Virus record (IMG/VR): IMGVR_UViG_3300020390_000003
Coordinates: 8,458 to 72,457 of that record
Source: a virus
Length of the DNA: 64,000 nt
Reading direction: 5' to 3' (one strand)
The first letter of the stretch is position 1. Every line of letters starts with the position of its first letter. Positions 376 through 64,000 of the stretch are shown here, in pieces. The notes under the pieces were generated by a model. It made no database searches and was not told the DNA's origin. It was given only the letters and a program-made list of their open reading frames with translations. The translations under genes were made by a program, and so were the position numbers.

Positions 376-448
376 ACTTCGGTAGCTCAGTTGGTAGAGC
401 AGCGGTCTCCAAAACCGTAGGTCGTAGGTTCGAGTCCTTCCCGTTGTG
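376..448 (+). tRNA. tRNA-Trp(CCA), with stem mismatches
   Basis: TAGCTCAGTTGGTAGAGC D arm; anticodon arm GCGGT-CTCCAAA-ACCGT; GGTTCGAGTCC T arm; two T-T mismatches in the acceptor stem and one in the T stem. Confidence 0.85.
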
Positions 449-585
449 CATACTTAGAGAGAGCGAAAGCGGATCATTGGCATAGATGCGATGAAGTAAG
501 TAGCGCAGAGAAAAGATACCGGGAATTATGCGCCCGGCATCACATTAAACAATCGGGAAACATAACAACTTTTATTACTTAACAA

Positions 586-4876: not shown

Positions 4877-5517
4877 TGGTAGTTTATCAAATAACAAACA
4901 AAATAAACTTAAAAATATATATAGGGTGTGCTGTGAATTATCAAGAAAGAATAAGGCAGCACAAAACTTGCAAATTTAAAGGCGCTTTACTTCTTCACAA
5001 GGCTTTTTTAAAATATGGAATAGAAAATTTTGAATTTAAAATCATTAAAAAATTTAGTTCTAAAGACGAAATGTTAGAAGGAGAAATTGAAGCTATAAAA
5101 AATAAAAATTCAATTTCTCCTAATGGCTACAATTTACATTATGGAGGAAAAGGAGGTAAAATAAAACTAACACCTGAACAACAACAAGCTAGAAGTATTC
5201 ATTATAAAAATTTGTCTAAAGGAAATATAGGAAACACCTATGGATTAGGTTATAAATGGACTAAAGAGCAACGAGATAACCTGAGCAAAGCCACTAAAGG
5301 AAAGACGATATCTGAATCTACTAAAAAGAAAATGTCAAAAGCTATGCTGGGAAACACTAGATCTAAAGGTGTTGTTAGAAGTGAAGAATATAAATCCAAG
5401 ATGTCTGAGTCTTTAAAGGGTAGAATTTTCACAGAAGAACATAAAAAAGCAATATCTGAGTCTGCAAAGAAAAGAGTCACTAAGTCAAAAAGAAATGAAA
5501 AAGGACAATTTATTTAA
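4876..5517 (+). CDS. GIY-YIG homing endonuclease with NUMOD3-like repeats
   Basis: VYQITNKINLKIYIG, ERIRQH, NGYNL, repeated SE.TKKKMS motifs. Confidence 0.9.
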   Translation: MVVYQITNKINLKIYIGCAVNYQERIRQHKTCKFKGALLLHKAFLKYGIENFEFKIIKKFSSKDEMLEGEIEAIKNKNSISPNGYNLHYGGKGGKIKLTPEQQQARSIHYKNLSKGNIGNTYGLGYKWTKEQRDNLSKATKGKTISESTKKKMSKAMLGNTRSKGVVRSEEYKSKMSESLKGRIFTEEHKKAISESAKKRVTKSKRNEKGQFI

Positions 5518-34980: not shown

Positions 34981-35700
34981 ATGGCCATCGCAACTTCGGC
35001 TGCTATTATGGGCGGCGCAGCATTAGCAGGATCAGGACTACAAATAGCGCAGGGAGCAAAGCAAACACGTGATGCTAAACGCGCTATGAATAACTTTGAG
35101 CGTCAAACCTTAGAGAATGTGTATGAAGATATGCCTATCTCGTTATTAGGATCTAATTTACGTAGGCAAGATGCGAGTCAGACTACTGCAGATTTAACCA
35201 ATGCCGCACAAGGAGCCGGAATACGCGGTGTATTTGGAGCGCTTCCTAGAATACAAGCCGGTGCCAATGATGCTGCACGTCAAAACCAACTTGATGTAGA
35301 TAACCAAGTGTCACGCCGTAACTATGCTATTGCCGGTGATAATGCGCGTATTCAAAACATACAAGAAAACCGCGATAATCAAGAACTTGCCGGAATAGGC
35401 CAGCAGCTTGCCGTAGGTCAACAAAACACGTGGTCTGGTATTCAAGGTGCTTTTAATGGTATAGGAATGGCTGCATCCGGATTATCGGGTACTATTGGCG
35501 GTGATGGAGCCACTGCTGCAGCAGGAGGAAGTCAAACCCCTATGATGCTACCTACTATACCGGCAATGCAATTAGGAAGTGGTATTCCTTCTATGCCAGG
35601 TTACATGTCACCTGTAAGTCAAGCTTCACCAATAGACGATTATTATAGACGTCAAGAAGAACGCCGAATGTATGAAGAAGCGGCTCCTAAACGTTTTTAG
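34981..35700 (+). CDS. Internal virion / ejection protein 1
   Basis: G/A-rich hydrophobic N-terminus with Q/N/A-rich helices, typical of podoviral pilot proteins. Confidence 0.65.
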   Translation: MAIATSAAIMGGAALAGSGLQIAQGAKQTRDAKRAMNNFERQTLENVYEDMPISLLGSNLRRQDASQTTADLTNAAQGAGIRGVFGALPRIQAGANDAARQNQLDVDNQVSRRNYAIAGDNARIQNIQENRDNQELAGIGQQLAVGQQNTWSGIQGAFNGIGMAASGLSGTIGGDGATAAAGGSQTPMMLPTIPAMQLGSGIPSMPGYMSPVSQASPIDDYYRRQEERRMYEEAAPKRF

Positions 35701-35743
35701 AAAAAACTTACTATCTTAGCTTCATAATCAACACCGGGAACTT

Positions 35744-36232
35744 ATGAAGCTTTTTTTATACTCAATCCTCAGTATATTTTTACTTAGCGCTTGCTCAAGC
35801 ACAGATGATACCGCTATTGATCAAAAAACAGAAATAGAAGGTAATAACGAATTGCAAGGGGTTTGGATTCTTGAAAATAAAATAAATAAAAATTCTAAAG
35901 CCGAAATAACTACTGATTGTGATTTACAACACGGTAAAATTATTTTTACAGAAAGAGGTAGTGAAGCTGAAATAACAATAGGGTCTATAAATACAGTGGG
36001 TGATTGTGAAAAATCGATAACATCATTTAATCAAGTTTTTATTAATCCAAGGTTAAGGCTGAGGATATTGACTCCTTATGATGTAAATAAACCTGATTTA
36101 GAATACGAGTATGAAGCTTATTTTTTAGGAGATAAATTATCTATAACTTTTATTGGAAAAGGAGAGATAGGATACCCTAAAGATTACATTACTGTTTCTG
36201 AACAAGAAACTTTCATATATAGAAAACAATAA
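35744..36232 (+). CDS. Lipoprotein (lipocalin-like), possible superinfection-exclusion moron
   Basis: Lipobox LLSAC; LQGVWILE; AT-rich; own TATCTTAG-like promoter and terminator. Confidence 0.65.
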   Translation: MKLFLYSILSIFLLSACSSTDDTAIDQKTEIEGNNELQGVWILENKINKNSKAEITTDCDLQHGKIIFTERGSEAEITIGSINTVGDCEKSITSFNQVFINPRLRLRILTPYDVNKPDLEYEYEAYFLGDKLSITFIGKGEIGYPKDYITVSEQETFIYRKQ

Positions 36233-36254
36233 AGGGGCCGAAGCCCCTATTTTT
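36229..36254. terminator. Bidirectional terminator
   Basis: AGGGGC-CGAA-GCCCCT flanked by A/T tracts. Confidence 0.75.
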
Positions 36255-36867
36255 ATAATCTTACTTGCGTAAATACCTGTTCTAATATTTGAGCAGGGTA
36301 CATCTTGACTTTACCAAAACGAGGATCCGGTATTTCATCAGTTAGCAATCCTTTCTCTTTACATAATTTTGAAGCTGCACGTCCTAGACGGCTTGCTAGT
36401 TTAATGTTTACAGACACCCCGTTAAGATTGCCATATCCTACTACTGTAAAATATTCCGGGCGTGTACTTGTTTTAGCTTTAAGTTCCCCTACTTCACGTC
36501 TTACTTCTGCTAAAGCCTCCTGATTTTCACGCATCATACGTATGGATTGTTCCATAATATCAAGGGTGCTCATAGGTTTACTTTGTGCTTTTTCAAGTTC
36601 TTCCCATCGCAATATCAACTTTGCACGAGCTTCATCATTAAACTTTGTAGCAATATATAAACTTTCGGTTTTTGAAAGTTGATACATTGGTTTTGCACGA
36701 TTCTGAGAATCAATATAAGAGGTCAATCCAAATTTGGATTGACCTAAATTAACCCAAGTTTCTTCCATCTTGCGAATATCACGCATTAAATGACCGTGAT
36801 TTTTACCTGTTACTTCTGAAATTTGTAAACTGGTTATTTTACCGTTGTCTAAAACTAAATTTCTCAT
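36253..36867 (-). CDS. Rha-family phage regulatory protein / antirepressor
   Basis: ITSLQISEVTGKNHGHLMRDIRKM...YIDSQNRAKPMYQL...KFNDEARAKLILRWEELE. Confidence 0.88.
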   Translation of the reverse strand: MRNLVLDNGKITSLQISEVTGKNHGHLMRDIRKMEETWVNLGQSKFGLTSYIDSQNRAKPMYQLSKTESLYIATKFNDEARAKLILRWEELEKAQSKPMSTLDIMEQSIRMMRENQEALAEVRREVGELKAKTSTRPEYFTVVGYGNLNGVSVNIKLASRLGRAASKLCKEKGLLTDEIPDPRFGKVKMYPAQILEQVFTQVRL

Positions 36868-37172
36868 AGCGCATTTGTATTAAGATTAGACAATGTAGTT
36901 TGGTGAGTCAACAACTCTTTTAAAGAAGCAATGAGCGTGATTTGTTGTTGTAGGCTATTGACAATTTGAGAAGCAGTTTTCGGCTTAAAACTGCTTTGTT
37001 TAGAAAGCACATAATTAACTAGTTGATGATGCGCTTTTAAATGATCACTAATATCTGCTTGCTCATAAAATTCAGAAAGCTTGTCATGTAAAACTTGCGA
37101 ATTGGCTTTAACAAATAATTGATTTGCAATTTGAGAATTGCGTTTACTGGTTTTCTTTTCTGTGTTTCGCAT
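36864..37172 (-). CDS. Hypothetical protein, leader gene of the Rha operon
   Basis: Coupled to rha; its start codon lies within a repeated motif. Confidence 0.6.
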   Translation of the reverse strand: MRNTEKKTSKRNSQIANQLFVKANSQVLHDKLSEFYEQADISDHLKAHHQLVNYVLSKQSSFKPKTASQIVNSLQQQITLIASLKELLTHQTTLSNLNTNAL

Positions 37173-37343
37173 TAGAAAAAAATTAAATTAAACAATAAGA
37201 GCGTAGCTCCCTCTAAGTTGCGAAACACACCAGTTGACGAGCAAATGGAATCGAGAGAGACTACGCCTGTATTGTAGCCTAAATATTCGGTAAAAAAAAG
37301 ATTGAAATACTCAATCAACTGTATGTTTCGCATTTCAAACATA
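37162..37343 (-). promoter_or_regulatory. Structured leader with complementary repeats (antisense/attenuator-like)
   Basis: TGTTTCGCA at 37163-37171 and 37324-37332; complement TGCGAAACAC at 37219-37228 inside a hairpin; promoter TATGTTTG (-) 37336-37343. Confidence 0.55.
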
Positions 37344-37433
37344 CAAAAGAAATTTTAATCTACACCATTAGTACTTAAAAAAAATAAATGTTACAGTATT
37401 GTTCAATCAAATAACGGTGTATTATAGTAAAGG

Positions 37434-37606
37434 TTAGATAGGTGGATTTACCTGAGCTAAGAATTGATAGCCTTTGGTTCAACCTCATTTTTAAAATGCA
37501 CAAGAAACTTTTTCACACAAGCTGTGTAAGTCTTACGGGTGCTTGGTGAGTTGTATTTTAACTCACAATCTCTCGAATACTTAGTTAACCATTTTCGAGT
37601 ATTCAT
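37434..37606 (-). pseudogene. Internally deleted integron-like tyrosine recombinase
   Basis: 49 aa MNTRKWLTKYSRDCELKYNSPSTRKTYTACVKKFL resembles the integrase SAM-like N-terminus; joined out of frame to QFLAQVNPPI-stop, resembling an IntI/Xer C-terminal tail. Confidence 0.6.
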
Positions 37607-37645
37607 AATTGACGTGTTAATTTTATTGGTGTTAGTGATGGGTTT

Positions 37646-37669
37646 GCATATATAGTAGTTGTGTGCAAT
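37646..37669 (+). promoter_or_regulatory. attI-like recombination site
   Basis: GCATATATAGTA-GTTGTGTGCAAT: unpaired GTT core about 50 bp upstream of the recombinase start, with no palindromic left arm. Confidence 0.5.
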
Positions 37670-37859
37670 AAAAAATTGATGCAGCCCACTTAACCGATAT
37701 TCCGTTCGGGTTGCTTTCACACCTCGGTGGGAAGTATTAACGAGCTTTGGACACTCTTACTTTTTAAGGTTTCTAATACATTAGTGGTAATCCCGCTGGT
37801 TTCTGCATCAATTCAATTTTTTACTGTTCACTTCGCCATACAACAACGTATAACAAAAA

Positions 37860-38006
37860 TTACTTACTATTCGTTTCTTGATGAAGTTTGTTTATCATAT
37901 AGCTTATCAGCCCACTAAAGTTCTCAACTCCAAGCACCAAAACAGATAAGTCATTACCCTTTTGGTGCATTTCGTCAGTTATTGTAATTGTTACTTTTTT
38001 AGTCAT
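37860..38006 (-). CDS. 48-aa ribbon-helix-helix-like protein
   Basis: MTKKVTITITDEMHQKGNDLSVLVLGVENFSGLISYMINKLHQETNSK, translated by hand. Confidence 0.55.
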   Translation of the reverse strand: MTKKVTITITDEMHQKGNDLSVLVLGVENFSGLISYMINKLHQETNSK

Positions 38007-38007
38007 T

Positions 38008-38187
38008 TTAAAAAATTAGTTTAGCGTTTAATATTCCTTTTTCAGTAAAGTCAACTTTTTTTAATTCCTTATAATCACATTCAGGATAAAAAGAAAGTAA
38101 ATCTTTTGCGCATTCTCTATTGCTAATAGTCCAACCTATTTGTTTAGTTATTAAATCAACTAATTTTTTAAAATTTTGTAAGTACAT
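38008..38187 (-). CDS. 59-aa hypothetical protein
   Basis: ATG 38187 downstream of a consensus promoter TTTG-19nt-TATCTTTG (38245-38215). Confidence 0.6.
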   Translation of the reverse strand: MYLQNFKKLVDLITKQIGWTISNRECAKDLLSFYPECDYKELKKVDFTEKGILNAKLIF

Positions 38188-38337
38188 AATATCTGTTTTT
38201 AATTGTTTACTTGTCAAAGATAGTAAATACTTTATACATACCAAACAAATACAATAATTTTTTTCACGTAACTTTTGTTATACAATTCCGTTAGCCTACA
38301 ATAGCCCATCGAGGGCACGCAATCAAACCAGTAAAAA

Positions 38338-38505
38338 TCAATTCTCCACCAAAGGTTTTAAGCAAAGTCTGGCTTCATTTGCATACTGCTTTAACGTATC
38401 AATTTGATAGTCTGTAATTGGTTTCTTTTGGTTGAGAATACGCCACATATAGGTATTGTAACAATGTGCATTATGTATTCTTTGTTCTTTCTCTGAAGCA
38501 TCCAT
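38338..38505 (-). CDS. Cassette gene, 55-aa hypothetical protein
   Basis: MDASEKEQ... fits between inverted repeats 38290-38303 and 38538-38551. Confidence 0.6.
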   Translation of the reverse strand: MDASEKEQRIHNAHCYNTYMWRILNQKKPITDYQIDTLKQYANEARLCLKPLVEN

Positions 38506-38548
38506 AGTGATGATTTTTAATAGTTTAAAAGATTGCTTATTGTAGGCT

Positions 38549-38717
38549 AACGGGCGGTGTATGGCCACGCATCGGCAATCGTCGGTTAATATTTGTTCAA
38601 TTCATTTATAATTCGATTGGCTACAGATAGCTAACAAAATGTAAAGCTTATAGATGCGTAGCTCAATCGGCTTTTACGTGTATGCTACGCATCCACAAGC
38701 CTTACACACCGCCCGTT
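38549..38717. repeat. attC-like site 2
   Basis: AAC-GGGCGGTGT...ACACCGCCC-GTT with 2-nt bulge; inner hairpin GATGCGTAGC/GCTACGCATC. Confidence 0.75.
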
Positions 38718-38727
38718 GTGCATAATA

Positions 38728-39147
38728 CTACAACTCGATTTGTAAATTGATATTACCAGACAAAACGCTTTCAATATCAATGGTGTATCTTAATTCGTGC
38801 CATATTGCAACCTTGTAGTTATTCCATTCCATATACTTTTTTTCTTTGTACTTGTCTTTAACCTCTTTAAGCCTTTCTCTTTTTGCTTTTGGTAGTTTAG
38901 AAGTGCAGAAGTATGCTAATCTCAAATCAACCTTATCCAAGGTTAAAGAATCTCGCCAATGAGATAGTTGTGCGTTTACATCACCTAATTCAAATTCTAA
39001 TCCATCGGCAAAAAGTATATTATCTTTGTACTTTTTTAAAGTGGTTTGTTCAGCTATTTCCGTTATTTGCTTTTCAATAGCTTTAACAGTTGCGTTTGCA
39101 CTAAAGCGTTTTTGTAGTGCTTCTATTAAAAATTTTTGTAATTCCAT
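38728..39147 (-). CDS. Cassette gene, 139-aa hypothetical protein
   Basis: ORF fills the space between inverted repeats 38715-38728 and 39151-39164. Confidence 0.7.
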   Translation of the reverse strand: MELQKFLIEALQKRFSANATVKAIEKQITEIAEQTTLKKYKDNILFADGLEFELGDVNAQLSHWRDSLTLDKVDLRLAYFCTSKLPKAKRERLKEVKDKYKEKKYMEWNNYKVAIWHELRYTIDIESVLSGNINLQIEL

Positions 39148-39161
39148 ACCGTACTATGCAC

Positions 39162-39285
39162 AACACTATATATAATTAATAGCCTGTGTTGTGCTTAATT
39201 TAAAGGCTATTAAGTGTTTAATAATTCAGTTTTAATTCGATAGGCAATCGCTTATTTACGTCTACTAATCATATATTTTAACGTT
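39162..39285. repeat. attC-like site 3
   Basis: AAC-3nt-ATATATAATTAATAG...CTACTAATCATATAT-6nt-GTT; 13/15 complementary. Confidence 0.65.
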
Positions 39286-39313
39286 AGGAAAAATGTCCTA
39301 AAGGCACGTATTG

Positions 39314-39496
39314 CTACGCTTTTAAAATTTGGTCAACCTCATTGTCCGTTAATTGTCCGGTGTGTTCATAGCCTTGCTTTAACCCATATTCTAAAACCTT
39401 TTTAACTTGTAATTTAGTCATAGGCTTACCTTTATGAGTAAAGGCTTTATAACTTCTGTCTAATTGGGTTAAAGCACCCTCAATATCTGCATTCAT
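39314..39496 (-). CDS. Cassette gene, 60-aa hypothetical protein
   Basis: Single ORF between sites 3 and 4. Confidence 0.65.
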   Translation of the reverse strand: MNADIEGALTQLDRSYKAFTHKGKPMTKLQVKKVLEYGLKQGYEHTGQLTDNEVDQILKA

Positions 39497-39536
39497 ATTA
39501 TTAATTTTAAATTCCTTCGCTTGCTCGATTGCCTCT

Positions 39537-39699
39537 AACGGTCAGGGTATGTCTACACATCGACAATCAATATGTGTATTTGCTATTTAAAGACTTACGC
39601 TAAGTCAACTACATCTAACAAAATATATACTCCATAGATGCGTAGCCAATGCTTCTCCTGTGTAGGCTACGCCTCCACGAAGCATATACCCTGACCGTT
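39537..39699. repeat. attC-like site 4
   Basis: AAC-GGTCAGGGTAT...ATACCCTGACC-GTT; internal sequence homologous to site 2. Confidence 0.75.
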
Positions 39700-39720
39700 A
39701 AACCGCCACTAAACTAATCT

Positions 39721-39799
39721 TTAATTTATACTAGATATAATTATAATGCTATTAATTTTCTATTAAATTTGTATTTAGTATAGATTTTGATTATAGAAA
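39721..39799 (+). promoter_or_regulatory. Late promoter
   Basis: TTCTAT-TAAATTTG (-7 at 39764-39771), same motif as 34938-34951. Confidence 0.6.
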
Positions 39800-41323
39800 A
39801 TGGCACAGCAAGGTAATTTTGCAGCATTGCAGCGTTTACAGCCTACTCAGGGCTTATCGCGTGATGTTCAGTATTGGAATAGTGATGCGGCAAGACGCCG
39901 AACTGAGAATCGTATTGATGAAAATATTCAGTATCAACGGGAGCAAGCGCGTAAAAAAGCACAATCAGAACTTTATGATAAATGGGTAAAACCCGGGCAA
40001 ATGTATGATACGGGTAGTGCGTCTTTAAATGAAGTGCTTGCCCGTGGATTAAGCCAAGCGCGTGAACAATATTTGCCTAACCTTCAGATTTTAGAAAACC
40101 CCAATGCTTCGCAAGAAGAAAAGATCAAAGCACGCCTTCGCTTAGATAATCTTAATCAACTTCCTGAGCGTTTTAAAACCGTTACAGATAAATACACCGC
40201 AGAATGGAATGCCTATCAAGAAGCCAAGCAAAATGGCAATGCGTATGATCAGCCGGAACTTGATAAAGCATTTCAAGGTGGTTTTAAAAGCTATGAAATT
40301 GGCCTTGATGATATGGCTAATCCTGTTATTGCTTTTGTAGATAAGAATGGGGATGGCCAAAACGATTTGATAGGTGCACAAACCTTTGATCAAATTAGTC
40401 AAGGTATGCCGCTTTTTGACTGGCAGAAAAAATACAATATTGATACGATGGCAGAAGATGTTGCCAAGCGTATAGGCACCACAGATAAGACCGAAGTAAC
40501 TAATGGCGGTTTTGGTAGCATTCAAGAAAAATCTGCAAACCTTGATGGTATTCGCACAGCCGCACAAAAACTGTTTTATGATGCTAATGGTGGCGCTACC
40601 GAAGTAGCAAAAAGCGCGCTAAGAGAATCCGGATTGAATTATCAAAACCCCACTGCACAAGACTTGCTGCAGGTTGAAGATAGTTTTGTCAAACAAGCAA
40701 TGTCTTATACTGATTATATGCGCAAGGAAACCCTTGATGCTAGTGGGCAAACATCGCGTATGCGTGAGAATCGACTTGCTAGTGGTGATAATCCTAATGC
40801 TGTGATCACCGAGCCGGTAAATCCTTCACAAGAAGTTTGGGGTGATGCTTATAGTACAATTGCGCCTAATGCAAAAAGTGTAGGTGTAAACGGCGTTAAG
40901 TTAAGCGCCATACGTGACGGAGAAAATACCATTACCGATGCCAATGTGCAAAACGTGACTTATGATGCCAATGGCAATATGCTTGTAGATGTGGTTTATC
41001 AAGACATAAAAAGCTCTACGTATAAAGCGAAAGAAGCAAGCATACTAGAACAGCTCGCACAAGCGCAAAAATCTCAGGACGTATTAGAAGAAGCCGGGAA
41101 TACCGAAGAAGCTAAAAAATTTGACGATAAGATACAAGGCTATAATATGGAATTAAATCGACTTTCTACCGGAGCTCAAAACAAGCGTAAAGTAGTACGC
41201 ATACCTAAAGAAGATGAAGCAAGTGTTGCACAACAACTAGGCGGTATTGAAGCGATAAAACAGCGCGTAGGAGTTCAAAATAACACTACCCAAACTAATG
41301 ATCCACTAGGAATATTTGAATAA
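39800..41323 (+). CDS. Internal virion / ejection protein 2
   Basis: Helical Q/A/D-rich 507 aa ending NDPLGIFE; lies between pilot and giant protein. Confidence 0.6.
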   Translation: MAQQGNFAALQRLQPTQGLSRDVQYWNSDAARRRTENRIDENIQYQREQARKKAQSELYDKWVKPGQMYDTGSASLNEVLARGLSQAREQYLPNLQILENPNASQEEKIKARLRLDNLNQLPERFKTVTDKYTAEWNAYQEAKQNGNAYDQPELDKAFQGGFKSYEIGLDDMANPVIAFVDKNGDGQNDLIGAQTFDQISQGMPLFDWQKKYNIDTMAEDVAKRIGTTDKTEVTNGGFGSIQEKSANLDGIRTAAQKLFYDANGGATEVAKSALRESGLNYQNPTAQDLLQVEDSFVKQAMSYTDYMRKETLDASGQTSRMRENRLASGDNPNAVITEPVNPSQEVWGDAYSTIAPNAKSVGVNGVKLSAIRDGENTITDANVQNVTYDANGNMLVDVVYQDIKSSTYKAKEASILEQLAQAQKSQDVLEEAGNTEEAKKFDDKIQGYNMELNRLSTGAQNKRKVVRIPKEDEASVAQQLGGIEAIKQRVGVQNNTTQTNDPLGIFE

Positions 41324-41340
41324 AACAGATTAGCACTTTT

Positions 41341-41574
41341 TTATAAGTTTGTCTTTTCTTCAAAAAACGATAAATCTTTTTTATGCTTTGTTATTTTTTT
41401 ATACTCCAAATCATTTACGTTATTCTTGTTAATTTTATCAGCAATTAAAGTTATACTTTTTACTGTATCGTGATCTAGATTACCACGTCTTACATCCATT
41501 AAAACACCTGTAAGCATTTGGTTTAATTGCTTAGAGTTATTTACTTCAAAATTCAAATCTCTTTTAGCTTCCAT
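41341..41574 (-). CDS. Hypothetical protein
   Basis: Coupled ORF. Confidence 0.6.
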   Translation of the reverse strand: MEAKRDLNFEVNNSKQLNQMLTGVLMDVRRGNLDHDTVKSITLIADKINKNNVNDLEYKKITKHKKDLSFFEEKTNL

Positions 41575-41989
41575 TTTTTAATTCTCTTTTAAGTTTTATT
41601 ATTAATCTTTTTGTTTCAATCATCCCTTTTGGAATTGAATTTTTATTCTTTCTCAATAAATTCGATATGTAATAGTCTGTTAAGTTTCTAGAATGAAATT
41701 TTGAAACGGTATCTTTATCTGATTTCAGTTTGATTTTAGTTCTGGTTTTAGAATATTGATCTTTCCATTTTTGACGATATTCTGAAATATCACATTCCAA
41801 TTCTATACATCTTTTTTTTATTCTATTTAACTCTCCTGTTTTTATGAGGCAAGATTTACAAAAGCTTCTGAAAGAATTATATATTTTCAATTCGCCTTTA
41901 GCGTTTTCTTGCTTTATCTTCTTTATATAAAAAAATTCTTTTGTCTTTGGATAAGACAGATTACACTTTCCACATTTTTTATATTCCAT
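41564..41989 (-). CDS. Zinc-binding basic protein
   Basis: KKCGKC...FF...CKSC; very K-rich. Confidence 0.6.
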   Translation of the reverse strand: MEYKKCGKCNLSYPKTKEFFYIKKIKQENAKGELKIYNSFRSFCKSCLIKTGELNRIKKRCIELECDISEYRQKWKDQYSKTRTKIKLKSDKDTVSKFHSRNLTDYYISNLLRKNKNSIPKGMIETKRLIIKLKRELKNGS

Positions 41990-42260
41990 TTTTTAATGGG
42001 GTTAATGATTCAAGTACCTCGCTACGTTTATAATACACTCGCCTTCCTTGTCCGTAAGCCTTAAGCTTACCGCTTTTCGTACGTTTCCAAAGGGTTGACT
42101 TTGTAATCTGTAATAAATCACAAACCTCATCCCTAGTCATTATCTGCTCAGCTGGCTTGTCTGAATTTTTGGGTTGATGCTGTATGCAAGCTTTTACACA
42201 ATCAACTATGATTGCTTGGAATTCAGACATAGGCAATGAAATCAATACAATTTTTTCCAT
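41979..42260 (-). CDS. HTH_17 / excisionase-like DNA-binding protein
   Basis: MTRDEVCDLLQITKSTLWKRTKSGKLKAYGQGRRVYYKRSEV. Confidence 0.85.
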   Translation of the reverse strand: MEKIVLISLPMSEFQAIIVDCVKACIQHQPKNSDKPAEQIMTRDEVCDLLQITKSTLWKRTKSGKLKAYGQGRRVYYKRSEVLESLTPLKNGI

Positions 42261-63849: not shown

Positions 63850-63927
63850 TGTTGGGAAAGTGTCGGGAAAATAGAGGTGTAAAACTAAAAAACCCCTGCG
63901 TTAACAGGGGTTTAGGTGAAATGTTAG
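63850..63927. promoter_or_regulatory. Prophage attachment junction / terminator
   Basis: Tandem TGTYGGGAAA (63850-63859, 63861-63870); inverted repeat AAACCCCTG/CAGGGGTTT (63890-63913) next to tRNA 3' end. Confidence 0.55.
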
Positions 63928-64000
63928 TGACCTCGGCAGGATTCAAACCTGCAACCTTCTGAGCCGTAATCAGATGCGCTATTCAGTTGCGCCACGAGGC
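63928..64000 (-). tRNA. tRNA-Arg(ACG), first base cut off by window edge; probable integration target
   Basis: Reverse complement GCCTCGTGGCGCAACTGAATAGCGCATCTGATTACGGCTCAGAAGGTTGCAGGTTTGAATCCTGCCGAGGTCA. Confidence 0.95.

Follow-up and report, generated by a model that had tools for sequence, protein, structure and literature searches.

The DNA segment at positions 37420-39699 of the window is probably an orphan (recombinase-less) array of integron-like gene cassettes. The window is the whole stretch analysed (64,000 nucleotides, nt) and corresponds to positions 8458-72457 of the 72,457-bp IMG/VR virus record IMGVR_UViG_3300020390_000003, which is 99% complete and classed linear. The marine flavobacterial phage is a relative of the Cellulophaga phi18:3 group and looks temperate, which is a plausible lifestyle for it. 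The initial annotation, made from the sequence alone, had placed the array in a prophage. This is not supported: the record is a nearly complete virus contig of the linear class, and its 432-amino-acid (aa) integrase is encoded outside the window (C1:1600-2139). The elements of the array are given below in the order of the window (ORF, open reading frame).

37420-37606, minus strand: small XerA-like tyrosine recombinase, gene with an internal deletion; N-terminal 48-49 codons (37463-37606), followed by a segment (37420-37471) made of its last ~36 nt and downstream DNA.
37607-37657, minus strand: recombinase-proximal junction, candidate attI-like site, 51 nt, from the recombinase ATG to the AAC of the first cassette (GTT 37658-37660 on the plus strand).
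37658-37844, unstranded: Cassette 1, 187 nt; no credible ORF; weak end complementarity (7 of the first 8 positions).
37842-38292, unstranded: Site 1, hairpin site, 451 nt; 16-nt arms (37848-37863 and 38268-38283), 94% complementary; 404-nt loop.
38290-38551, minus strand: Cassette 2, 262 nt; ends complementary at 14 of 14 positions; ORF 38338-38505, 55 aa, unknown function.
38549-38717, unstranded: Site A, structured hairpin, 169 nt; covarying outer stem next to AAC/GTT, conserved core.
38715-39164, minus strand: Cassette 3, 450 nt; ends (38715-38728 and 39151-39164) complementary at 13 of 14 positions; ORF 38728-39147, 139 aa, unknown function.
39162-39285, unstranded: Site 3, 124 nt; site class of Polaribacter phage P12002S and Tenacibaculum phage JQ; weak fold.
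39283-39539, minus strand: Cassette 4, 257 nt; ends complementary at 8 of 12 positions; ORF 39314-39496, 60 aa, unknown function.
39537-39699, unstranded: Site B, structured hairpin homologous to Site A, 163 nt; distal end of the array.

From 37658 to 39699, units of the form GTT...AAC (cassettes) alternate with units of the form AAC...GTT (sites), as established by direct reading and by a script. Neighbouring units share their AAC or GTT, and one of these two triplets is found at every junction. The ends of Cassette 2 are GTTAGCCTACAATA (38290-38303) and TATTGTAGGCTAAC (38538-38551). The one odd arm pair of Cassette 3 is G.T on the ORF strand. On re-reading, the ends of each cassette complement each other, like split halves of its own folded site, as had been described, cassettes 1 and 4 being weak as stated at the time; the single small minus-strand ORF of each of cassettes 2-4 was likewise recovered. 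No TAnnTTTG box was found in cassettes 2-4. The five array ORFs gave no match better than E 0.02 in Pfam, PHROGs and NCBIfam, and the 139-aa protein of Cassette 3 had no usable match in Atlas.

The ends of these cassettes recur in other loci around other contents. JQ has, in the same position with respect to the following module as Cassette 1, a cassette whose ends are similar (GTTGTGTG...CACACAAC). Both ends of Cassette 2 are common to L010 (6129-6386), the ORF body not. The end sequences of Cassette 3 surround another ORF in P12002S. The right end of Cassette 4 has a perfect partner in L013 (8902-9159), the common part being the last 19 nt of the cassette and Site B only. A leader of ~23 nt is conserved between the ORF start and the private arm (window 38518-38540; L007 ~5455-5478; L008 ~1640). 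It occurs in cassettes with different ORFs, and the cassettes that have it carry a small G+C hairpin at the other (3′) end.

Sites A and B are 79% identical and are the sole two copies in the record. Folded as single-stranded DNA, either strand of both sites is far more stable than its shuffles (z -5.1 to -7.5; none of 200 shuffles as good). A pattern search with the conserved core of this class retrieved three more viral contigs. In the 5-copy alignment of the class, compensatory changes affect 12 of 36 predicted pairs, and the two sides of the stem next to AAC/GTT change together across the five copies. The fold of Site 3 is weaker (z -2.5 on the plus strand, -1.8 on the minus strand); window 39139-39239 is 79% identical to P12002S.

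The 451-nt palindromic site of the initial annotation is indeed a hairpin site, but its loop carries a two-gene, promoter-bearing module that is also found in the Danklef and JQ phages. The minus-strand ORFs of this loop are 38008-38244 (78 aa) and 37860-38006 (48 aa). Its promoter-like sequence has a Bacteroidota-type -7 box at 38215-38222, in the context TTTG...TATCTTTG. An empty, 46-nt version of Site 1 is present in JQ (L006 4145-4190). TAnnTTTG boxes were found solely at 38215-38222 and at 37336-37343. Sites A and B were considered as carriers of Bacteroidota promoters and rejected as such, because the ORF strand of sites A, B and 3 has no TAnnTTTG. Altogether, four hairpin sites are gathered within 1.9 kb of a 72-kb record that has no small recombinase, only the remnant and the 432-aa integrase.

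The remnant ORF (37457-37606, stop at 37457) has a weak match to Phage_int_SAM_4 (E 7e-4). It is 87% and 83% identical to the N-termini of two intact 266-aa recombinases, P0001 and P0002. When P0001 was compared with the whole record (tblastn), residues 1-48 matched at 88% identity and nothing else was significant. Window 37471-37420 aligns to L014 8763-8814, a segment made up of the final ~36 nt of the recombinase gene and the 3′ flank. Because the remnant keeps the N-terminus and these last ~36 nt, the gene has undergone an internal deletion of ~628 bp that removed all catalytic residues. The tyrosine-recombinase remnant proposed earlier next to the array is thus confirmed, with intact counterparts that head like arrays. 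The array of the window is therefore an orphan and not a working capture system.

The intact relatives have 266-271 aa and a simple two-domain architecture. Their best matches are the structure of XerA of Pyrococcus abyssi (PDB 4a8e, E 9e-37) and the NCBIfam XerA model (167-194 bits); all their family scores are under the curated cut-offs. Integron-integrase models gave 126-166 bits in two stretches (TIGR02249, cut-off 265) and 81-117 bits (NF011946, cut-off 435), and the IntI4 structure 2a3v aligns to residues 15-179 only. R132, K160, H216, R219, H242 and Y251 are invariant across six intact relatives, as is K157; the R, K, H, R, H and Y columns are read here as the putative catalytic residues. 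A PF00589 search of G000-G003 and JQ gave two small recombinases (open frames of 271 and 280 aa) and four large integrases (432-452 aa), and no IntI-sized relative.

The small recombinase genes lie at a fixed distance from the cassettes. AAC is located 51-52 nt before the recombinase ATG and is followed by NNN-YATAT at 10 loci out of 10 (L012, L014, L015, L016, L018, L021-L024 and the window). In the window, the junction 37607-37657 begins AAC-TAC-TATATAT on the recombinase strand. This conserved region is a candidate attI-like site. Five viral loci carry recombinase relatives, one of them being cut at the contig start. The other four have cassettes or sites directly upstream, with AAC 51-52 nt before the ATG; a detected cassette ends at that AAC in L014, L015 and L018. 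The intact copy of G002 (L012), a complete 70-kb phage, shows the same arrangement. Among the relatives from genome_contigs (53 examined of 80 returned), three of the four closest (L021, L022 and L024) show it too, and the fourth (L023) has the motif and no detected arm pair.

The same class of sites is associated with intact tyrosine recombinases, as the initial annotation had expected. In G001, an intact 271-aa recombinase (32% identical to P0001) heads ~15 small ORFs, all pointing toward it, in an array with two long sites of the A/B class. In L014, a site of this class is located 330 nt from the intact recombinase. In the window, G001 and L015, every ORF of the array is directed toward the recombinase; because of this orientation, the site travelling with an ORF is located 5′ of it.

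Just downstream of a cassette array in Polaribacter phage Danklef_1, residues 120-266 of P0001 match at 40%, which reads as a second decayed copy of the recombinase gene. At this place (L107, MT732458.1, 41039-41491), the annotated 43-aa "integrase" is the tail of a 5′-truncated gene of XerA-like recombinase; the gene that follows this tail encodes an HNH endonuclease. Arrays are present and no recombinase match was found in JQ and in P12002S/L.

The probability that the array arose by chance was estimated with 200 Markov-1 simulated windows. GTT-led inverted repeats (14-nt arms, at least 13 matches, span of at most 600) number 2 in the window, compared with a simulated mean of 0.235. At least two such strict repeats were found in 3 of 200 simulations, and a cassette-site-cassette chain in none of the 200. 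Recurrence in other phages is stronger evidence than these statistics. Cassettes with perfect 10-nt GTT-led arms number 42 in 14 sources, including the isolated phages JQ, Danklef_1 and P12002S. In the 42 aligned cassette ends, GTT and positions 11-12 are constant and the seven bases between them are private to each cassette. G002 has cassettes whose private ends are complementary at 15/15, 14/14 and 13/13 positions, and a minimal hairpin site of 32 nt. In JQ, Danklef_1 and P12002S, the same grammar brackets DNA methyltransferase genes among others. At L012 916-1580, a cassette with ends complementary at 12 of 14 positions has its ORF on the strand opposite to that of its neighbours, so cassettes can sit in either orientation; at a junction of this locus, AAC is directly followed by GTT, with no hairpin between them.

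In 23 of the 42 cassettes, the pair at arm position 11 is G.T on the ORF strand, A.C on its complement; three more show the reverse with an ambiguous ORF direction, and no clear opposite case was found. Because the wobble is G.T on the coding strand and A.C on the other, the coding strand would fold best. The bottom strand is the recombinogenic one in classical integrons; by analogy, the folding coding strand may correspond to it.

Homology between phages stops at the junctions of the array in several cases. The 451-nt unit 37842-38292 is 73-86% identical at the DNA level to Danklef_1-5 and JQ, from AAC to GTT, with different neighbours in each; the homology spans window 37837/37842 to 38294/38297. 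Site B is 98% identical to L013 9141-9319 and the homology stops exactly at GTT (39699). The homology of L014 to the recombinase region ends at 37653, 5 nt before the first GTT. P12002S and P12002L have backbones that are 99.6-100% identical; one replaced block begins right after GTT and ends at ACGTT. Indels bounded at GTT cores, which were sought in related phages as a sign of cassette exchange, are thus found in this pair. Whole cassette blocks, cut at hairpin sites, differ between P12002S (L109, 3677-6033 and 6530-7623) and P12002L (L110, 4267-6213); the differing blocks include different methyltransferase or Mom-like genes. The phage-borne capture and shuffling system suggested earlier therefore stands as regards breakpoints at junctions and intact relatives beside arrays; it does not stand for the window itself, whose recombinase is deleted and whose array is an orphan copy.

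The anatomy of the array, the covariation, the link with the recombinase family and the breakpoints at junctions are observed; folding as single strands, the precise crossover position, the identity of the acting enzyme and any activity belong to the mechanism proposed here. The cassette unit would be [TT-private arm-ORF-private arm′-AAC-hairpin site-G]. In the free circle, a single long hairpin would be built from both private arms together with the site. The small (266-271 aa) XerA-like recombinase would join this folded site to the conserved site located 51-52 nt upstream of its own gene or, alternatively, to the site of another cassette. The crossover would take place in or beside the invariant GTT and would split each hairpin, so that the ends of an integrated cassette match each other and not those of the neighbour. 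Seen from the recombinase gene, the layout is that of a classical integron (recombinase, junction site, cassettes), with ORFs on the opposite strand, toward the recombinase. The recurrent G.T wobble would mark the ORF strand as the folding strand. The four cassettes of the window, whose small proteins are of unknown function, would be frozen unless a related enzyme acts in trans.

Several observations weigh against an integron-like array moved by this recombinase. The small recombinase, whose action on array sites is hypothetical, does not carry the IntI-specific insertion. Among the 53 genome_contigs relatives examined, the more distant ones (at most 42% identity) mostly have no cassette within ~100 nt upstream. 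The arms of cassettes 1 and 4 are weak and, taken alone, not above chance; a looser count of inverted repeats (13-nt arms, at least 12 matches, span of at most 2500) is also at chance (2 versus a mean of 3.2). The 139-aa ORF has homologues at one locus and the 60-aa ORF at five, and among these loci only L104 has a hairpin site within 110 nt upstream. Because most of them have no recognisable cassettes, the gene families of the cassette ORFs also exist outside cassettes. The G.T wobble would suit an RNA stem equally well.

Other points of this kind come from the comparison of related arrays. The three-cassette block found only in P12002S joins inside a shared ATACA, 9 nt 5′ of GTT; because of this junction, the indel also fits short-homology recombination. 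Homologous pairs (window/L010, window/L013 and three GTTGGCAGTAAT cassettes) share cassette ends and the adjacent site and differ in their ORF bodies. The window and L010 share leader, trailer, arms and site at 87-100% identity, with different ORFs. Because shared ends hold different ORF bodies, breakpoints are also found inside cassettes, which simple whole-cassette mobility does not predict. The annotated gene order of the arrays of Danklef_1 and Danklef_5 is identical, which makes this pair uninformative. Of the 24 read runs listed, 8 cover at least half of the stretch. The contigs of four marine runs (X4, X5, X7 and X8) show no array joints and no cassette-level variants; at ~5x coverage and fragmentary, these contigs decide nothing either way. 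In run X4, a 185-nt contig at window 38673-38704 carries a long site of the G002 type with its own flanks. Because its flanks are its own, this marine sample holds a second phage with the long-site class.

Part of these observations would be expected if the array were an ordinary cluster of attC sites lacking an integrase (CALIN). The cassettes would have been made and moved by the IntI of a bacterial host and then picked up by phages, and the small Xer-like recombinase would do another job, such as dimer resolution or phage integration. The classical integron core consensus is RYYYAAC/GTTRRRY and some cassette ends fit it in part (e.g. GGCTAAC and GTTAGCC). JQ and P12002S/L have arrays and no recombinase match, as this explanation would have it. 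In its available text, Qi et al. 2023 (PMC9892861) described CALINs in virulent phages, including P12002L with two methyltransferase cassettes; attC sites were predicted there by HattCI and Infernal, and one P12002L site recombined with attI1 under IntI1, with a G|TT junction. These predictions in a related phage weaken the initial suggestion that standard attC models may overlook such sites. Such an origin is nevertheless unlikely. It leaves aside the position of the small recombinase, fixed 51-52 nt from the AAC of the last cassette with a conserved motif at all ten loci, and the fact that the window and Danklef_1, which are unrelated phages, both have a decayed copy of one recombinase gene at the end of an array. 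No IntI-sized relative came out of the PF00589 search of G000-G003 and JQ, and a single complete integron, that of Salinibacter ruber, is named within Bacteroidetes proper in the available text on IntegronFinder 2.0 (PMC9024848).

The pairing itself could also act in RNA: a transcript stem would close each ORF, the structured spacers would be processing, stability or termination signals, and shuffling would result from homologous or short-homology recombination. In T4-type phages, intergenic promoter-stem-loop modules have been proposed to shuffle genes by recombination. The wobble on the coding strand (G.U in RNA; 23 of 42 cassettes), the leaders and trailers conserved beside the arms, the identical ends around different ORFs, the 5-nt shared stretch in which the P12002 three-cassette indel joins, and the RecT- or NinG-type recombination proteins annotated in array-bearing phages would all be accounted for. 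This explanation is also improbable. It explains neither the invariant AAC/GTT at every junction, nor private arm pairs abutting a separate covarying hairpin, nor the constant association with a tyrosine recombinase and with the motif conserved next to its gene; a Bacteroidota-type -7 box is absent from the ORF strand of sites A, B and 3. In vivo recombination of a related site by IntI1 at G|TT, reported in the available text of Qi et al. 2023 (PMC9892861), is left unexplained as well. Finally, chance inverted repeats or the terminal inverted repeats of miniature transposons would agree with the loose GTT-led repeat count and with the weakness of cassettes 1 and 4; they are very improbable, since the chain is absent from all 200 simulations, the grammar recurs in many phages and no transposase is present. 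Transposon terminal repeats were rejected, the arms being different in every cassette except for GTT and positions 11-12.

The array belongs to a larger accessory region of the virion structural module. Window 34981-35700 and 39800-41323 encode proteins homologous to Cellulophaga phage phi18:3 gp120 (45% identity) and gp121 (35%), whose genes touch each other in that phage (L020 5316-5999 and 6001-7500). Because the flanking homologues are adjacent in phi18:3, the DNA between them in the window is an insertion:

35701-39799, unstranded: accessory insertion in the virion structural module, 4.1 kb; contents: lipoprotein-like ORF, Rha/anti-repressor gene, 102-aa ORF, recombinase remnant, array.

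The isolated phages matching the virion protein of the window (tblastn) correspond to eight Cellulophaga phage records (31-35% identity), which revealed the insertion and are too distant for a comparison of cassette content at the locus. A search of viral contigs with the 507-aa virion protein found no relatives of the phage. An imperfect inverted repeat of 27 nt (37152-37178 and 37326-37352) brackets window 37150-37360, which shares 72% identity with Polaribacter phage Leef_1; the -7 box at 37336-37343, of Bacteroidota type, precedes the 102-aa/Rha operon. Window 41341-42260, located between the gp121 and gp123 homologues of phi18:3, has three small minus-strand ORFs (77, 141 and 93 aa) where phi18:3 has a single plus-strand gene. 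This looks like a second accessory islet of the structural module; judged by eye, the 93-aa product is similar to helix-turn-helix or excisionase-type proteins. Genes for tRNA-Trp and tRNA-Arg are found near the two ends of the window (376-449 and 63927-64000). Rfam, at the gathering threshold, gave these kinds of genes only over the whole 64 kb: two tRNAs and no other family.

Integrons are the textbook device of gene capture and shuffling, are defined by IntI and have been considered rare in Bacteroidota. The present data suggest that phages of marine Flavobacteriia exchange small accessory genes by a hairpin-cassette logic, with a smaller, different tyrosine recombinase. The chances are about even that Bacteroidota phages and some bacteria run an IntI-independent, integron-like exchange in this form, with a minimal XerA-like recombinase, folded single-stranded DNA sites, an invariant GTT, 7-base private "address" stems with a strand-selecting G.T wobble, inverted ORFs and gene-bearing loops. 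If so, cassette capture would have been solved a second time, either convergently or in a deeply diverged form, and much of the mosaicism of small genes in marine flavobacterial phages would be explained. If the enzyme acts on array sites, the definition of integron-like systems would widen, a mechanism would be gained for phage mosaicism in plastic regions, and a compact pair of recombinase and site would be available for study. The cassette genes of the relatives include DNA methyltransferases that counter host restriction. In the window, the array has persisted after the loss of its recombinase and is located in a structural gene module.

Integrase-less attC clusters were already known in P12002L, the sister of P12002S, which shares DNA with the window. 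In open full text (subscription papers and supplements being outside it), including the available part of Smyshlyaev et al. 2021, no literature linking a Xer-like recombinase to cassette arrays in Bacteroidota phages was found; "Xer" has no occurrence in the available text of Qi et al. 2023 (PMC9892861).

By sequence, the enzyme resembles the XerA/XerC/XerD dimer resolvases most (best match; nearest solved structure, XerA of P. abyssi, 4a8e). Unlike theirs, its gene is phage-borne, lies beside cassette arrays and gives scores under the curated cut-offs. The pdif modules of Acinetobacter plasmids are gene modules flanked by Xer-type sites of inverse orientation, each pdif/dif site being one conserved double-stranded sequence of ~28 bp with two arms and a 6-8-bp spacer. 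The arrangement of modules between inversely oriented recombination sites of a Xer-type enzyme is similar here. By contrast, the arms differ in every cassette and complementarity alone is kept (42 cassette ends); no constant dif-like 28-bp site was seen at array junctions. The promoter-stem-loop modules of T4-type phages are alike in that small accessory ORFs of plastic phage regions are flanked by repeated stem-loops; they differ from the present arrays, which have private arms, invariant AAC/GTT, a linked tyrosine recombinase and sites with no promoter box. The Vibrio cholerae repeats belong to a sedentary chromosomal integron with uniform attC sites. As in such integrons, near-identical site sequences frame many different ORFs here; unlike them, the arrays are phage-borne, short and linked to a different recombinase family.

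Integrons and CALINs are the closest systems. Like them, the arrays consist of single-gene cassettes and imperfect hairpin sites that start with ...AAC and end with GTT...; ORF-less cassettes occur, as do methyltransferase cassettes in the relatives of the window. As in integrons, each cassette begins with bases complementary to those that precede its own AAC, and one end of the array has the recombinase gene and a candidate proximal site, the gene being transcribed away from the array like intI. In integrons, cassette ORFs are promoterless; a promoter on the integrase side drives their transcription away from the integrase, and attC follows the ORF on its 3′ side. Here, ORFs point toward the recombinase and the hairpin site is upstream of the ORF of its unit. 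The linked enzyme is a XerA-like protein of 266-271 aa, with no IntI insertion, and is deleted in the window. The private arms are 10-15 nt long (GTT, seven variable bases, R-T), compared with a 7-nt core, and the sites reach 163-169 nt with a conserved core or carry loop genes. The arrays are integron-like but are not integrons, because the integrase and the ORF orientation depart from the definition of integrons, to which the form of the sites and the split-core signature conform. With its non-IntI recombinase, its extended private arms and its ORFs facing the recombinase, this system differs from known integrons and CALINs.

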